Virus record (IMG/VR): IMGVR_UViG_2534681999_000018
Location: 1 to 14,827 of that record
Direction: 5' to 3' (one strand)
Origin: a virus
Taxonomy: Duplodnaviria; Heunggongvirae; Uroviricota; Caudoviricetes
Length of the DNA stretch: 14,827 nt
Shown: piece by piece, positions 7,902-13,366 of the stretch
How positions within the stretch are numbered: position 1 is the first letter of the stretch
How the letters are laid out: each line of letters starts with the position of its first letter
Position numbers and translations under genes: made by a program
The notes under the pieces: generated by a model
Seen by the model: only the letters and a program-made list of their open reading frames with translations
Told to the model about the DNA's origin: nothing
Database searches by the model: none

Positions 7902-8153
7902 ATGACCCAAAAACGCAGAGACAGAACAGAGCCAAAATATAAAGCGTTAGACATGACTGAGCACACCTTAAAGGTGGCAATCAGAACGATAGACCGCCAC
8001 ACGCGGGAAGGATACGCGAAGGAACATCCCGACCTGATAAGCGCATTCATGACCACGGCGGCGGCAAACTTTGCCACGCTGACAGAACGGGAGATTGCCG
8101 AAGCGGAACAGGTAACAACCATCAACGTTAAAACCGGAGAGGTGGAATTATGA
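7902..8153 (+). CDS. Hypothetical protein
   Basis: Track ORF 7872..8153 begins with GTG inside the iterons; ATG at 7902 preferred; stop overlaps the ssb start (ATGA). Confidence 0.45.
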   Translation: MTQKRRDRTEPKYKALDMTEHTLKVAIRTIDRHTREGYAKEHPDLISAFMTTAAANFATLTEREIAEAEQVTTINVKTGEVEL

Positions 8154-8560
8154 CGGCACAGATAGCCGCTTACGGGCGGCTGGTGGACGACCCGCAGGTA
8201 AAACAGACCAGCAAGGGCACACCGATGACGCTGGCGCGTATGGCGGTATCTTTGCCATGCAGCCAGGCACAGGACGGACAGGCGACGTTATGGTTATCGG
8301 TCATCGCATTTGGCAAACAGGCCGGCTTCCTGGCTAAACATCAAAAAGGCGATGTTGCCAGCGTATCCGGCACGATGCAGGTAAGCCAGTGGACCGGACA
8401 GAACGGAGAAACGCGGCAGGGCTGGCAGGTTATCGCAGACAGCGTAATCAGTGCCCGCGCGGCACGTCCAGGCGGGAACAGACGCAAAACCACAGGCACA
8501 CAGGGTAATCAGCCACCAGCGGGAGGCGATGACCCTTACGGTGATGATATTTCGTTCTGA
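8150..8560 (+). CDS. ssb: Single-stranded DNA-binding protein (SSB)
   Basis: 136-aa ORF; OB-fold-like N-terminal region, Gly/Pro/Gln-rich linker and acidic C-terminal tip DDPYGDDISF resembling the SSB DDDIPF tail. Confidence 0.8.
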   Translation: MTAQIAAYGRLVDDPQVKQTSKGTPMTLARMAVSLPCSQAQDGQATLWLSVIAFGKQAGFLAKHQKGDVASVSGTMQVSQWTGQNGETRQGWQVIADSVISARAARPGGNRRKTTGTQGNQPPAGGDDPYGDDISF

Positions 8561-8570
8561 GGGGGTGACG

Positions 8571-8843
8571 ATGGTACATGACCGCATAGCGGAGGAACTG
8601 GAGGCGAAAGGCTTTTACCGGAGGGCGGCGGCGCGATGGGGTGAAGTCATGCAGCTGGTGGAGACAGACAAGGAACGGCATCACATCACGATGCGACGGC
8701 TGGAATGTTCAAGGAAGGCACAGAGGGCACCGGAGCCGCCGGATAATTTCGGAGACCTGAAAAAGGCAGTCGATCGCACTTATGCCGAAATGGGTATAGA
8801 TGGTGCTGGTGATGAAATATGGCGCAATTACCAGGACAGCTAA
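8571..8843 (+). CDS. PerC/Pch-family transcriptional activator homolog
   Basis: 90-aa product from ATG 8571 (GAGGGGG RBS); N-terminal MVHDRIAEELEAKGFYRRAAARW matches the recalled PerC-family signature. Confidence 0.6.
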   Translation: MVHDRIAEELEAKGFYRRAAARWGEVMQLVETDKERHHITMRRLECSRKAQRAPEPPDNFGDLKKAVDRTYAEMGIDGAGDEIWRNYQDS

Positions 8844-8849
8844 TCAAAC

Positions 8850-8873
8850 AGCCGGAGAAATCCGGCTTTTTTT
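8850..8873 (+). terminator. Rho-independent terminator, copy 1 of a repeated terminator motif
   Basis: GCCGGAGAAATCCGGC hairpin followed by 7 T, just after the perC-like stop. Confidence 0.75.
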
Positions 8874-8969
8874 GCACCAGTTGAAACGGTATGGCGCATT
8901 ACCGGGTTTTCGTCACGGTCAGGCATAGTTACTATCTGAAACAAACAGACACAACAGAGGAAAAAAACA

Positions 8970-9194
8970 ATGCCGATGAAATTTGATGAGATATTAAAAC
9001 AGCGTGATAAATACCATGCTGACAACATGGAGACGATGAGCATCAATGATTATCGCGCATTCCTGGAGACGGGCGCACTGATTGAAAAGGATCAGCATGG
9101 TTTTGTGAGATGTGCTCTATCCGGTGAAATGCTGGCGGTAAATCCTGAACAGATAGATGCATTGATAGAATTTCTGAAAGAGATCAGAGACTGA
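8970..9194 (+). CDS. Hypothetical protein, moron-like (own unit between two terminators)
   Basis: 74-aa ORF with GAGGAAAAAAACA upstream of the ATG; flanked by terminators at 8850-8873 and 9215-9236. Confidence 0.5.
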   Translation: MPMKFDEILKQRDKYHADNMETMSINDYRAFLETGALIEKDQHGFVRCALSGEMLAVNPEQIDALIEFLKEIRD

Positions 9195-9214
9195 GCCAGC
9201 ACACAGCACACATA

Positions 9215-9236
9215 GCCGGAGCAATCCGGCTTTTTT
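9215..9236 (+). terminator. Rho-independent terminator, copy 2 of the repeated motif
   Basis: GCCGGAGCAATCCGGC hairpin followed by 6 T; one loop mismatch relative to copies 1 and 3. Confidence 0.75.
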
Positions 9237-9248
9237 GCGCCCAAAAAA

Positions 9249-9284
9249 AGCCCGATAAGGTCAGAGGGTTCTTATCGGGCTTTT
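9249..9284. terminator. Second hairpin, potentially bidirectional terminator
   Basis: AGCCCGATAAG / CTTATCGGGCT stem flanked by an A-run upstream and T-run downstream. Confidence 0.5.
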
Positions 9285-9360
9285 GCATATGAGGTTTTTG
9301 GATGCACTGGCGTTCGTGATCGGGATAATCATTTCATAATTTGCAACATAACTCAATATC

Positions 9361-9411
9361 ATTGCATAAAATGCAATTCTGATTATAATCAGGACTGGAT
9401 AAACATCCAGT
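9361..9411 (+). promoter_or_regulatory. Promoter upstream of the capsid operon overlapped by three palindromes
   Basis: TTGCAT (9362-9367), 16-bp spacer, TATAAT (9384-9389); palindromes ATTGCATAAAATGCAAT (9361-9377), CTGATTATAATCAG (9379-9392) and ACTGGATAAACATCCAGT (9394-9411). Confidence 0.55.
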
Positions 9412-9445
9412 TATGATTTTTTTAGTCGAAGAGGAATTTCTTACT

Positions 9446-9652
9446 ATGGCTGAAGAGAAAAAAAGCGGTGTTTCGGTGTACATAAGCCCCGAAATCGTGG
9501 AGGTGCTCAAGCAGCGCCACAAAAAAAACTATGAAGCTGGCGTTGCGGCTGGACTGGATCCGCTGATGACGCCGGAGCCGTCGATAGGTTCACTTGTACG
9601 CTCTTATTTACTTGCGGCGCTTGGGATGCATAAAAATTATGGGGGTGAATAA
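9446..9652 (+). CDS. Hypothetical protein
   Basis: 68-aa product from ATG 9446 (GAGGAA RBS); stop overlaps the capsid gene start (TAATG). Confidence 0.5.
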   Translation: MAEEKKSGVSVYISPEIVEVLKQRHKKNYEAGVAAGLDPLMTPEPSIGSLVRSYLLAALGMHKNYGGE

Positions 9653-10707
9653 TGGCAGGCAAAGCAACGGCACTTAACACTAACCAGCTTTTCATGTACC
9701 TGAATCGCGGGGATATTGCGGATTTTAAATTCAGCCCTCTGTTTACCACGCTGTTTTTCCCGAACGTGGCGACATTCAGCACGCAAAACATCATGCTGGA
9801 TACCCTGGACATTGAAGAAGTCACCATGTCGGCGTTTTGTTCGCCTATGGTGGGTAGCCAGGTTCAGCGCGATAAAGGGTACGAAACCAGCACAATCAAA
9901 CCTGGCTACATGAAGCCAAAGCACGAAATCGATCCAACGAAAACCATCATGCGCATGGCTGGAGAAGATCCGGCACAGCTTAACGACCCTACCTATCGCC
10001 GTATGCGCCTGATTACTGGCAACATGCGCCGCCAGATAAACGCCATTAAGGCACGCGTGGAATGGCTGGCGGTGAATGCGGTAACGACCGGAAAAAACAT
10101 CATTGAGGGCGAAGGCATAGAACGCTATGAAATCGACTGGAAAATACCGGAAAACTGCATCATAGAGCAGGCCAAGGGTAAAAAATGGTCCGAGCAGGAT
10201 AAAGACATGCACGACCCAATCTATGACATCGAGCTTTATGCTGATCAGGCTGGTTGCCCCGCAAACGTCATGATTATGGGCGCTGAGGTATGGCGCACAT
10301 TACGCAGCTTTAAAAAATTCCGTGAGCTGTACGATCTTTCCCGTGGTTCAGAATCCGCCGCCGAACTGGCCTGTAAAAACCTGGGCGAAGTGGTGAGCTT
10401 TAAAGGCTATCTTGGTGATCTGGCCCTTATCGTCTATTCCGGCAAATACACTGACAGCGATGGTACCGAAAAATATTTCCTTGAGCCTGATTTGCTGGTC
10501 CTGGGTAACACCAACAATAAAGGGCTGGTGGCCTATGGTGCGATAATGGATCAGGAAGCGGTAAGAACGGGCGCAACACAAAACATGTTTTACCCGAAAA
10601 ACTGGATTGAGGACGGCGATCCGGCGATTGAGTACGTGCAGACACACAGTGCACCGCAGCCGGTACCGGCAGATATTCGCAAATTTGTTACCGTCAAAAT
10701 TGGTTAA
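9652..10707 (+). CDS. Major capsid protein, lambda gpE family
   Basis: 351-aa product aligns by eye along its whole length with lambda gpE (341 aa), e.g. FKFSPLF, PGYMKPKHEIDP, DPTYRRMRLI, YSGKY, LVLGNT, YPKNW, HSAPQP. Confidence 0.9.
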   Translation: MAGKATALNTNQLFMYLNRGDIADFKFSPLFTTLFFPNVATFSTQNIMLDTLDIEEVTMSAFCSPMVGSQVQRDKGYETSTIKPGYMKPKHEIDPTKTIMRMAGEDPAQLNDPTYRRMRLITGNMRRQINAIKARVEWLAVNAVTTGKNIIEGEGIERYEIDWKIPENCIIEQAKGKKWSEQDKDMHDPIYDIELYADQAGCPANVMIMGAEVWRTLRSFKKFRELYDLSRGSESAAELACKNLGEVVSFKGYLGDLALIVYSGKYTDSDGTEKYFLEPDLLVLGNTNNKGLVAYGAIMDQEAVRTGATQNMFYPKNWIEDGDPAIEYVQTHSAPQPVPADIRKFVTVKIG

Positions 10708-10719
10708 CGGGGGGATTCT

Positions 10720-11055
10720 ATGGACACTCCATACATTGAGTTATTTGCAGGCAGTCAGCAGGTATCCACGACGTTGGTACATTTTGCCGCTGATGCTGGC
10801 GTTATTCAGGAATTTACCCCGCTGATGCTGGCAGACAATGGCGAGTTTAAGCCGTGGGATGGTCAGGAATCTGGCAAGGCTGTTTATCTGACCTCGTACC
10901 CTGTGGACACGTCAAAGCAGAAATCAGCACAGTGTTACAAGACGGGGATATTCAATATTGCCGCCGTTAACTGGCCTGAGAGCGTCGACACCGATGCGAA
11001 AAAATGCGCCGCCTTTGCGGGTTCCGGCGTATCCGTTCAGCCGCTGGCCCGATAA
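10720..11055 (+). CDS. Head decoration protein, lambda gpD family
   Basis: 111-aa product (lambda gpD is 110 aa) with TPLMLA, YKTGIFN, WPE and AAFAG segments matching gpD; GGGGGG RBS. Confidence 0.85.
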   Translation: MDTPYIELFAGSQQVSTTLVHFAADAGVIQEFTPLMLADNGEFKPWDGQESGKAVYLTSYPVDTSKQKSAQCYKTGIFNIAAVNWPESVDTDAKKCAAFAGSGVSVQPLAR

Positions 11056-11067
11056 GCAGGGGGAACG

Positions 11068-11481
11068 ATGGCAACGAATGAAAGCATCATGACGCTACCG
11101 CTGGCGAGTAAATTTAAAGTCGAAGCGCGGGCAATGGCTGACAGAGGTTTATCAACCTATGAGGCCGTATATCAACTAAACAAACTGGAAGAGCAGGACA
11201 AGCCGTGCGCTGATGCGATTATGGCGCTTCATGAGCATAAAGACTATCAGCCGCTGTTGCGTGCAATGGCAAACGTGCCTTGTATCGATGTTGGTACGGC
11301 TAAAAGCATCCTTAGCATGACCATAGAGCAGGAACGTCCGAAGGTTGCGCCGGAACTTACCGCAGCCTTTGAAAACTTTATGGACATGCACAGCCCGCAA
11401 GCCGTATCAGCTGGCATGGCATACGATGGCAGAAACCAGGGCGATGACGGCGACATCGATCGCATACTGAAAACCATCTGA
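11068..11481 (+). CDS. Hypothetical protein in the capsid/packaging module
   Basis: 137-aa ORF with AGGGGGAA RBS; no recognisable motif; between the gpD-like gene and cos. Confidence 0.55.
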   Translation: MATNESIMTLPLASKFKVEARAMADRGLSTYEAVYQLNKLEEQDKPCADAIMALHEHKDYQPLLRAMANVPCIDVGTAKSILSMTIEQERPKVAPELTAAFENFMDMHSPQAVSAGMAYDGRNQGDDGDIDRILKTI

Positions 11482-11486
11482 GACAA

Positions 11487-11509
11487 GGCCGGAGAAATCC
11501 GGCTTTTTT
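11487..11509 (+). terminator. Rho-independent terminator, copy 3 of the repeated motif
   Basis: GCCGGAGAAATCCGGC hairpin followed by 6 T, identical to the copy at 8850-8873. Confidence 0.75.
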
Positions 11510-11510
11510 A

Positions 11511-11580
11511 CGGGTCCTTCCTGGAATTATGGCCCGTTACGGGGCGGCGACCTCGCGGATTTTCGCTATTTATGAGCCTT
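11511..11580 (+). other. Lambda-type cos site, copy 1 (cosN GGGCGGCGACCT at about 11542-11553)
   Basis: CCCGTTACGGGGCGGCGACCTCGCGGATTTTCGCTATTTATGAG matches the recalled lambda cos junction (…CGTTACG|GGGCGGCGACCTCGCGGGTTTTCGCTATTTATGAA…) almost base for base; lies about 150 bp upstream of the Nu1-like gene as in lambda. Confidence 0.8.
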
Positions 11581-11686
11581 TTCAGGGTGGTGGTGGTGGT
11601 TTTGTTGTTTGATCTATCTTTATGAATGAAAAGGGAAAGATGCAAGCAATACACCAACCTGAAGCAGTAATTAAGTTGGTGTATTA

Positions 11687-12229
11687 ATGAAATCTCATCT
11701 GATGAACAAAAAAAACATGGCGAAAAGCTGCCGTGTAAGTGCGACAGCGTTCGACAAGTGGGGAGTAACTCCCGTTGAGCGTAAAGGCCGTGAGGCGTTT
11801 TATGATGTTGCCAGCGTGATAGAAAATAGGGTTAACAATGCAATTAGCCAGCTTATAAACGACAAAGGCGAGATTGACGATGATGAACTTTTACGAGTCA
11901 GGATCAGATTACTGACAGCACAGGCAGAGGCGCAGGAACTTAAAAACGATCGCGATCGCGGTGACGTGATTGATACTGAGTTTTGCCTGTACGCGCTTTC
12001 AAAGCTGGCGAGTCAGATTTCATCAATCATGGACAGCCTCCCGCTTACTATGCAAAGGAGCTTCCCACAGATTACCCCCGCCATGCTGGACAGGCTTAAA
12101 AGGGAAGTGGTTAAAGCCTGTAATGCCAGTGCCAGAGTTGCCGACAACCTCCCACAGATACTGGCTGATTACTTGAAAGAAACAACCGGAAACGTACCGG
12201 AAAAGTTGCTACAGAAGAAAGGCGAGTAA
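11687..12229 (+). CDS. Terminase small subunit, lambda Nu1 homolog (element-encoded)
   Basis: 180-aa ORF (alternative start ATG 11702, MNKKNM...); alignable with lambda Nu1 over the whole length (NKK, FYDVASVIE, LLTAQAEAQELKNDRDRGDVIDTEFCLYALSKLASQISSIMDSLPLTMQRSFPQ, PQILADYLKETTG); weak RBS. Confidence 0.85.
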   Translation: MKSHLMNKKNMAKSCRVSATAFDKWGVTPVERKGREAFYDVASVIENRVNNAISQLINDKGEIDDDELLRVRIRLLTAQAEAQELKNDRDRGDVIDTEFCLYALSKLASQISSIMDSLPLTMQRSFPQITPAMLDRLKREVVKACNASARVADNLPQILADYLKETTGNVPEKLLQKKGE

Positions 12230-12257
12230 CAGACGCGCAATTATTGAACAAAAATGA

Positions 12258-12319
12258 GAAAGGATCTGATAATGGCATTTTCTGGCTAAAATGCCTCGTG
12301 TCAGATCCTTTCTTTTTTT
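12258..12319 (+). terminator. Compound hairpin terminator after the Nu1-like gene
   Basis: Outer stem GAAAGGATCTGA / TCAGATCCTTTC enclosing inner stem GGCATTTT / AAAATGCC, followed by 7 T. Confidence 0.6.
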
Positions 12320-12379
12320 AATATTTTCATTGTTAAACAGTCTGTTACAGAGAAGAAGATCGGATCTGACTTTTGCCGG

Positions 12380-12451
12380 AAAATTCTCATAAACAGATAA
12401 AAACCGCGAGGTCGCCGCCCCGTAACGGGCCATAATTCCAGGAAGGACCCG
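12380..12451 (-). other. Lambda-type cos site, copy 2, inverted (cosN reverse complement AGGTCGCCGCCC at about 12409-12420)
   Basis: 12404-12451 is the exact reverse complement of 11511-11558 (48 bp); further lambda-like sequence (TTTATGAGAATTTTCCGG on the minus strand) continues toward the Nu1-like gene. Confidence 0.75.
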
Positions 12452-12484
12452 ACGACACCAGACTATCAGAGCGATGGGGGCACA

Positions 12485-12766
12485 ATGACAGAAGCCGAAC
12501 TACTGGGATTAATCCGCCGCGTCGCCGGAATCAGCCAGCAGCATGACGAACAGGCCACACAGCCGGACAGCGTGACCGCTGAAAATTATGTGCGTGTTGT
12601 AGCGGAAGTGATGCGCCGTGATGGTATAGAACTTAATGGCGTTGATATGCGCAACATACGGAACCGCGTTCTTGAAATGCTGGCCTACAATCGCCGCGTT
12701 GAACTGTATCGGGAGAAAGAAAAAATAACGTACCACTGGAAGAAGCCGGAACGGCTGCGGCGGTAA
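12485..12766 (+). CDS. Hypothetical protein
   Basis: 93-aa ORF with GGGGG RBS; outside the inverted cos pair; no recognisable motif. Confidence 0.5.
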   Translation: MTEAELLGLIRRVAGISQQHDEQATQPDSVTAENYVRVVAEVMRRDGIELNGVDMRNIRNRVLEMLAYNRRVELYREKEKITYHWKKPERLRR

Positions 12767-13366
12767 CTTGCTGATATTCCCGATAACGCAAAATTGCGCT
12801 GGCTACATCCTCACATCTGAGGACTGTTAATCAGAAGGCCGGAATATATTCACAAACTACGAAATTTTCGTAGTTTAATTAATGGTCAGATTAATCGCTA
12901 ACCCGCTGATATTTTCGGAAACCTCAATTTGAGGAAGTCGGAAGCGTCACCCTTCATATTCTGAATGGTCATAATGACCACGCAGACCATCAAGGCAACC
13001 ACAACGAACATCGTTACGGTTGGAGCTTTTACCCCACTGGGGGAAAGGTATTACGATAATCATAACACCTACCGAACAGGTAAAACCCACCAGCCTGATT
13101 AACAGTTAACCGGAAAAAAAATCCGGTAGCCCCGTTATGGGGATCCCCATATCGACATTAACGCCCCTCATGAATTGGTGCGCTTCCCCCTGGAAAGATT
13201 ACCCGCCTGTATATTTCTTGTGTCTATTTGTTCCACGTTGTTTCATACAGTGCACCGAACGGTGTAGTTAATGGTGTAGTCAATTTGCTGTTTTTAGCAC
13301 TTTTTGCAGTGTGGGTTGTTTAATTAAATCAATGGGTTGCCTTGCTGTGGTGATAAAAGGACATAT

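Follow-up and report, generated by a model that had tools for sequence, protein, structure and literature searches.

pchE of the Escherichia coli O157:H7 island OI-51/Sp7 as an optional satellite cassette and a candidate modulator of H-NS-type silencing

The PerC/Pch regulators are named for activation of the LEE, but this activity is unevenly spread over the family. On a ler fusion, PchA, PchB and PchC raised expression 4- to 8-fold, PchE raised it less than 2-fold, although significantly, and PchD had no effect (PMC5931665). Pch proteins of groups 2 and 3 are dispensable for LEE expression and adherence (PMC6265319), and the passage on Porter 2005 in PMC11773190 gives no effect on LEE1 fusions for the PerC-like genes of EcCIEDL933 and EcCICFT073, a null result that we take as covering PchE. 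By these published data, the activity that gave the family its name is not a property of PchE. Over-expression of pchE instead has ler-independent repressive effects on csgD, curli, biofilm and HEp-2 adhesion, and raises fliC, the flagellar operons and motility (PMC6265319, PMC7369912); the repressive phenotypes include csgD, eae and lpfA1 (PMC7369912). These phenotypes were obtained by over-expression from plasmids, and biofilm was unchanged in the regulator deletions tested (PMC6265319).

The gene, ECs1588, lies within an island that is called OI-51 or CP-933C in strain EDL933 and Sp7 or S-loop 78 in strain Sakai, spanning ECs1574-ECs1600 (PMC1890555, PMC2323221, PMC3378721), and the name pchE has been in the literature since 2004-2012. 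Since earlier work already covers the gene with its family, island, transcript and phenotypes, what we describe here is in the main already known. Our additions are modest: statistics on the presence and absence of PerC genes, the cassette structure of the junction where pchE sits, and the breadth of the similarity between PerC and ANR proteins. The best explanation of the whole, to which we give a probability of about 0.6, is that the gene is pchE of OI-51/Sp7, carried as an optional cassette by a phage satellite and acting as a modulator of silencing that alters traits of the host.

The pchE gene and its satellite island

The window, that is the whole stretch of 14,827 nucleotides that was analysed, contains on the + strand an open reading frame of 273 nt, from an ATG at 8571 to a TAA at 8841-8843, which encodes 90 amino acids. 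A Shine-Dalgarno-like GAGGGGG lies 5 nt 5' of the ATG, immediately past the ssb stop codon (8558-8560), and the start codon agrees with RefSeq WP_000233304.1. The first-pass annotation had assigned the product to the PerC family, an assignment that would have fallen had a profile search given no match. The Pfam profile PerC (PF06069) matched strongly, with an E-value of 3.9e-43 and 146.1 bits against a gathering cut-off of 22.6, over the full length (residues 1-89 aligned to positions 1-89 of the 90-position profile), and the assignment stands. PHROG phrog_994 matched as well (E 3.2e-47), and all the invariant or nearly invariant residues of the family are kept (A7, L10, E11, G14, R17, R18, A19, R22, W23, C46 and G75, in an alignment of 56-57 homologues). 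Public collections list the identical protein, under the name 'PerC family transcriptional regulator', from at least 1000 contigs. Among the more diverged pchE alleles of related islands (11-22 nt differences), dN/dS lies at 0.14-0.32 and internal stops are absent; pchE is a real gene under selection.

By its sequence this open reading frame is pchE (ECs1588), a group 3 Pch of the O157:H7 island OI-51/Sp7. No difference from ECs1588 was seen (100% identity to the O157:H7 locus), and a partial protein 94% identical to PchE carries the source name 'PchE'. A longer frame in the mechanical list, starting from a GTG at 8451, overlaps with ssb and does not represent the gene. RefSeq also places a 42-aa hypothetical protein, WP_001301569.1, at 8800-8928; since this frame shares sequence with the 3' end of pchE and extends across the terminator hairpin, it is probably no real gene. 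The word-indexed homologue search returned close relatives only (at least 62% identity), and tblastn with PchE against the phage collection only 7 weak matches. PchE, orf74 and seven further small proteins of the island had no match among the PADLOC defence models, and an Rfam scan found no RNA family anywhere in the window.

The gene and its immediate 5' and 3' neighbours, all read on the + strand, are as follows.

7701-7901, + strand: intergenic region past the RepA-helicase gene with AAAGTGAG(G) iterons, the probable island origin (sequence read directly)
7902-8153, + strand: ECs1586, first cistron, 83 aa (RefSeq WP_000192401.1; phrog_1231, E 3.3e-53; PMC7369912)
8150-8560, + strand: ECs1587, single-stranded DNA-binding protein (ssb), second cistron (Pfam SSB, E 9.3e-16; TIGR00621)
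8571-8843, + strand: pchE (ECs1588), 90-aa PerC-family protein, group 3 Pch (PF06069; identity to the O157:H7 locus; distance from the transcription start)
8850-8874, + strand: intrinsic terminator ending the pchE cistron, hairpin 8850-8867, AGCCGGAGAAATCCGGCT followed by a T run (terminator scan)

pchE is thus placed as the third and final cistron after ECs1586 and ssb, and the terminator at 8850-8874 ends the unit. Andreozzi and Uhlich placed the start of the pchE transcript at a G that precedes ECs1586 by 10 nt and pchE by 675-680 nt, with RNA spanning at least ECs1586, ECs1587 and pchE (PMC7369912). In the window this start corresponds to about position 7892, since ECs1586 begins at 7902, and the distance from there to 8571 is 679 nt; the published transcript geometry therefore fits. 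The pchE promoter had weak activity without induction and roughly 3-fold lower activity with an SOS inducer (PMC7369912); expression is low and constitutive and drops on SOS induction.

In the region 7701-7901, immediately 3' of the helicase gene, AAAGTGAG(G) occurs at least six times, with one copy in inverted orientation. Satellite origins sit 3' of the replication gene (PMC6092414), and by this rule we place the putative origin of the island in this region. The published transcript start of pchE, at about 7892, also falls among these iterons, and because of this, binding of the replication protein and transcription of pchE may interfere with each other.

From 4882 to 13300 the window is 100% identical to the phoQ-adjacent island of many E. 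coli O157:H7 genomes, and all proteins from orf154 through orf93, the last island gene, are 100% identical to those of that island. For phage-inducible chromosomal islands (PICIs), the published criteria are that int and alpA share one orientation at one end, that an iteron origin follows the replication gene, and that lysis and tail genes are missing (PMC6092414). Here int (2329-3567) and an alpA-like gene (3560-3784) are co-directional, the gene for a RepA-type helicase (6301-7701) is followed by the AAAGTGAG iterons, and past ssb the structural genes of the island are limited to capsid E-like, decoration D-like, scaffold-like and Nu1-like genes, without tail or lysis genes. By these features the island is a phage satellite, a Gram-negative PICI of the EcCICFT073 type, a class for which induction and high-frequency transfer by a helper phage form a further, experimental criterion.

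The window is a hybrid in its left part. Only the phoQ right end agrees with the placement of Sp7 between roxA (ycfD) and phoQ, and the Sp7 integrase arm is replaced. The left flank carries a prophage lysis gene, a DUF1441 gene and a truncated large-terminase gene, and the left 5 kb lies outside Sp7 and agrees at 99.8% with the left arm of a related island, one that in other strains interrupts a lambdoid prophage within its large-terminase gene. The junction between the two arms (about 4880-5100) was absent from all 5,426 complete E. coli genomes searched, which points either to recombination or inversion involving two islands or to a chimeric assembly. In NZ_AP026097.1 (locus L002, 12160-13164 and 23570-24700) a lambdoid prophage has its large-terminase gene cut in two by a related satellite of about 10 kb, in which ssb is not followed by PerC and a protease/capsid fusion gene takes the place of the E/D head module.

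The island carries another regulator with a published role.

6005-6304, + strand: rgdR (ECs1581), 99 aa, with RGD at residues 20-22 (translation; DUF4222 annotation; PMC3378721)

RgdR, a protein of 99 aa and 11.7 kDa with an RGD motif at R20, is the published LEE1 activator of OI-51 (PMC3378721), so the known link of the island to virulence regulation runs via rgdR and not via pchE.

Predicted fold, similarity to ANR proteins and silencing

An AlphaFold model of PchE made with an alignment of 56 homologues had five helices, a pLDDT of 84 and a pTM of 0.50, and was used in place of a single-sequence model (pTM 0.35), which was set aside. The fold it predicts would be all-helical and TPR-like, without a helix-turn-helix. 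A sequence search of solved structures gave only chance-level matches to F-BAR proteins, with E-values of 0.01 or weaker. Residues 7-52 of PchE aligned to the ANR model NF033650 with 20.4 bits and an E-value of 3.3e-4, short of the curated cut-off of 32, and the same model matched 42 of the 56 PerC family members, the best with an E-value of 3e-7. The relationship to ANR proteins is thus a property of the PerC family. We do not count PchE itself as an ANR protein, given a score below the cut-off and 90 aa with five predicted helices as against about 60-70 aa with three.

Work on the relatives gives these similarities a possible meaning. ANR proteins lack the ability to bind DNA and work through AraC-type regulators and H-NS, both of which are bound by the family member Aar (PMC5570504, PMC4983702). 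PchA activates LEE1 through relief of silencing by H-NS, StpA and Hha; its sites fall within H-NS-bound regions, and together with Ler it reduces H-NS occupancy at the LEE (PMC4764244). The authors of that study, Fukui et al., found no homology of PchA to known DNA-binding proteins and regard Pch as a DNA-binding protein from ChIP (PMC4764244), so that PchE, too, may touch DNA directly. The loci that respond to PchE include csgD, stpA, ler and flhDC (PMC7369912).

The helical fold without a helix-turn-helix, together with an N-terminal half related to ANR proteins, suggests that PchE probably modulates silencing of the H-NS type. All four of the responsive loci are classical H-NS-influenced loci. 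The raised motility is unlike what simple H-NS antagonism would predict from hns mutants. The most likely course of events, in our analysis, is that PchE, a small TPR-like helical module with an ANR-related N-terminal half, alters transcription by remodelling silencing complexes of the H-NS/StpA/Hha type at AT-rich promoters. We favour, by analogy with its relatives, a small adaptor working by protein-protein contacts over a protein with a classical DNA-binding domain. The known outputs are traits of the host, with csgD, curli and adhesion lowered, flagella raised and no meaningful activation of LEE1.

Two other readings start from the same similarity. In the first, PchE would be an anti-activator of the ANR type that binds and inactivates a regulator of the AraC/XylS family and so lowers expression of virulence genes and adhesins. 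The alignment of residues 7-52 and the matches across the family are what such a reading would expect, as is the repression of csgD, eae and lpfA1, and the repression of LEE1 in Citrobacter rodentium by EcCIMP1_025, the PerC homologue of another PICI, led its authors to raise the same idea (PMC11773190). However, the score of PchE lies under the ANR cut-off, its five helices exceed the three of Aar, no match to AraC/XylS was found among the island proteins scanned with Pfam, NCBIfam and PHROG profiles, and PchE also activates genes, namely the flagellar regulon. We regard this reading as unlikely.

The second reading is broader, and we hold it to be doubtful. It makes the entire PerC family an extended branch of the ANR proteins, a TPR-like helical module with which phages and satellites reprogram H-NS/StpA/Hha silencing by protein contact, with LEE activation as a host-specific side effect and PchE helping the island as well. 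If this were true, PchE might relieve silencing of the AT-rich packaging promoter or tune the helper phage. The family-wide ANR similarity and the lack of a DNA-binding fold offer a testable lead to how PerC/Pch proteins may act.

A cassette between replication and packaging genes

Downstream of pchE the window continues with a second small gene, two further hairpins and the packaging genes.

8970-9194, + strand: orf74, second optional cassette gene (phrog_1957, E 2.3e-42)
9214-9236, + strand: second, near-identical copy of the AGCCGGAGnAATCCGGCT terminator, past orf74 (terminator scan)
9243-9284, unstranded: third hairpin (9250-9280), GCCCGATAAG...CTTATCGGGC, with an A run on one side and a T run on the other, in the shape of a bidirectional terminator (sequence)
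9329-9411, + strand: putative promoter/operator region of the capsid operon (sequence; conservation)
9446-12229, + strand: capsid/packaging operon (Pfam Phage_cap_E, HDPD and Phage_Nu1; phrog_53 C-terminus; RefSeq), comprising the next five genes
9446-9652, + strand: small open reading frame, first operon gene (RefSeq annotation)
9652-10707, + strand: major capsid protein, E-like (Pfam Phage_cap_E)
10720-11055, + strand: decoration protein, D-like (Pfam HDPD)
11068-11481, + strand: scaffold-like protein, 137 aa (phrog_53 C-terminus)
11687-12229, + strand: small terminase, Nu1-like (Pfam Phage_Nu1)

For the first operon gene, the mechanical open reading frame starts at 9413, while RefSeq and a conserved ribosome-binding site, AAGAGGA, favour the ATG at 9446 and a product of 68 aa. 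The 137-aa protein matches only the C-terminal end of the head-maturation protease phrog_53 (positions 495-567 of 583). In phage lambda the scaffold Nu3 is nested in the C gene, and the restricted match, recalling that arrangement, makes the product of 11068-11481 probably a scaffold protein.

Three hairpin terminators lie between pchE and the capsid operon, and the GCCCGATAAG/CTTATCGGGC hairpin is conserved in all related islands (53 distinct sequences aligned). Past them, the stretch upstream of the operon is AT-rich (30-36% G+C) and holds TTGCAT (9362-9367) and TATAAT (9384-9389) separated by 16 nt, a perfect -10 hexamer with a poor -35, along with three conserved palindromes within 9329-9411 (TTGCATAAAATGCAA, TGATTATAATCA and CTGGATAAACATCCAG). 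In 80 islands, PerC-positive and PerC-negative alike, the 173-nt region 5' of the operon is 75-100% conserved, most of all in the hexamers and the palindromes. We infer from these features that 9329-9411 functions as a promoter, and the poor -35 suggests a need for an activator other than PerC. The hairpin at 9393-9412 was also considered as a leader terminator for antitermination; its stem begins at the predicted start of the transcript and the T run lies 6 nt off, and it is more likely an operator palindrome.

Our sample consisted of 80 IMG/VR loci whose capsid protein is 92-100% identical to that of the window. Of these, 72 contained ssb as well as the first capsid-operon gene, and PerC genes were counted between these two. 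PerC was present in 38 of the 72 islands and absent from 34, where the gap between ssb and the operon was only 208-388 nt. orf74 occurred in 15 of the 38 PerC-positive islands and in no PerC-negative one. Reading the junctions gave four variants: empty, a cos-like 171-nt segment, PerC, and PerC with orf74. In the PerC-bearing variants that were read (the window and locus L028), a AGCCGGAGnAATCCGGCT terminator ends each cassette; in the PerC-less variants it stands directly 3' of ssb, and the cos-like segment lies past it. One shared hairpin trails ssb, pchE or orf74 across the related islands. In the window orf74 is bracketed by the near-identical hairpins AGCCGGAGAAATCCGGCT (8850-8867) and AGCCGGAGCAATCCGGCT (9214-9231). 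Since in related islands this hairpin ends any cassette that occupies the junction, it could supply the homology for cassette exchange.

The 171-nt segment, found in many PerC-negative islands (for example at L026 3412-3582), is 87% identical to positions 448-618 of the window, 5' of the prophage terminase genes, and is probably a cos region copied from phages of the helper type. A second copy was not found within the island of this window.

The presence or absence of PerC at a fixed junction argues that pchE is an interchangeable passenger, and that the capsid promoter is independent of PerC in cis. Its occurrence in about half of otherwise near-identical islands speaks against a core role in the life cycle, and we would see pchE as a swappable, optional cassette where the replication and packaging modules meet.

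PerC genes also occur in settings that lack this capsid operon. In satellites of E. albertii, Atlantibacter, Kluyvera, Shimwellia and Enterobacter, PerC is preceded by an SSB gene, directly in several genera and with one open reading frame between in E. albertii. In Pantoea, Erwinia and Lonsdalea PerC comes after a P4-type primase, in lambdoid prophages it is located past the lysis cassette, and 138 plasmid records carry it, including the perB-perC locus of pMAR2.

These distributions bear on the suggestion, made in the first-pass annotation, that the element uses PchE as its own late activator. In that role PchE would switch on the capsid/packaging promoter (9362-9389) once the replication operon has been expressed. 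The order of replication genes, pchE, three terminators and an AT-rich promoter with a poor -35 and palindromes is cascade-like, and the PerC family is annotated as transcriptional activators. However, the 34 islands without PerC at this junction keep the same capsid operon and the promoter region, conserved in them at about 75-90%, and an obligatory role of this kind is thereby left without support. In addition, both allele types of the promoter and first operon gene (orf79) are found with and without PerC, satellites without this operon (those of E. albertii, Enterobacter, Pantoea and Lonsdalea) and lambdoid prophages carry PerC all the same, and the pchE promoter is on in the uninduced state and falls with SOS (PMC7369912). 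We consider late activation by PchE improbable. Perhaps the PerC-less islands are served in trans by other PerC copies of the same genome, and an optional or in-trans late role might exist.

Comparison with known regulators

To our knowledge, most genera with PerC-bearing satellites or prophages, such as Pantoea, Lonsdalea and Enterobacter, which hold close relatives of PchE, are not known to carry the LEE. LEE control cannot, for this reason, be the general role of the PerC family, and this also speaks against PchE as a LEE activator. That PchE boosts Ler in LEE-positive hosts, as EPEC PerC and PchA/B/C do, is a reading that could draw on the shared Pfam family, the identity to EPEC PerC, the small but significant effect on the ler fusion and the lower LEE expression when OI-51 is deleted, but the last effect was mapped to RgdR (ECs1581), not to PchE (PMC3378721), the EcCIMP1_025 homologue acts in the opposite direction, and with the published reporter assays largely refuting it we find this reading very improbable. 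The first-pass statement that PerC/Pch proteins activate the LEE is right for EPEC PerC and PchA/B/C and does not extend to PchE. Its further idea that the element feeds into host virulence regulation survives in another form, as repression of csgD, curli and adhesion and induction of flagella under over-expression, and not as LEE activation.

Among the described systems, the PchE locus of Sp7/OI-51 shares with the window its sequence, its neighbours (ECs1586 and ssb on the 5' side, the capsid operon on the 3' side and phoQ at the right) and its transcript geometry. The window differs in the left arm (int, alpA and a Bro-N gene, 2329 to about 4900), which comes from another island, and in the left flank, where a split phage terminase gene stands in place of the roxA of Sp7/OI-51.

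EPEC PerC (pMAR2/pEAF) is 41% identical to PchE, and identities to EHEC PchA/B/C and PerC range over about 41-44%. These proteins have in common with PchE the Pfam family, the AE-LE--G-YRRAA-RW motif, carriage on mobile elements and a similar size, PchA/B/C being somewhat longer (a 315-bp gene). They act strongly on LEE1, in contrast to the effect of less than 2-fold seen with PchE (PMC5931665), and their genes are set differently: EPEC perC in the perABC operon, a prophage homologue, probably of the PchA/B/C type, past the lysis cassette, and pchE past ssb in a satellite. EcCIMP1_025 is a PerC-family gene on an E. coli phage satellite that is likewise treated as an accessory gene, with an identity of about 40% given by its authors; the LEE1 repression in C. 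rodentium is a result for EcCIMP1_025 (PMC11773190).

The ANR proteins Aar, Cnr and Rnr resemble PchE in being small and all-helical, with no recognisable DNA-binding domain, and the relation in sequence covers the first three helices. PchE is longer than these proteins (90 aa and five helices, as against 63 aa and three in Aar), with two extra C-terminal helices and no gene for an AraC partner nearby.
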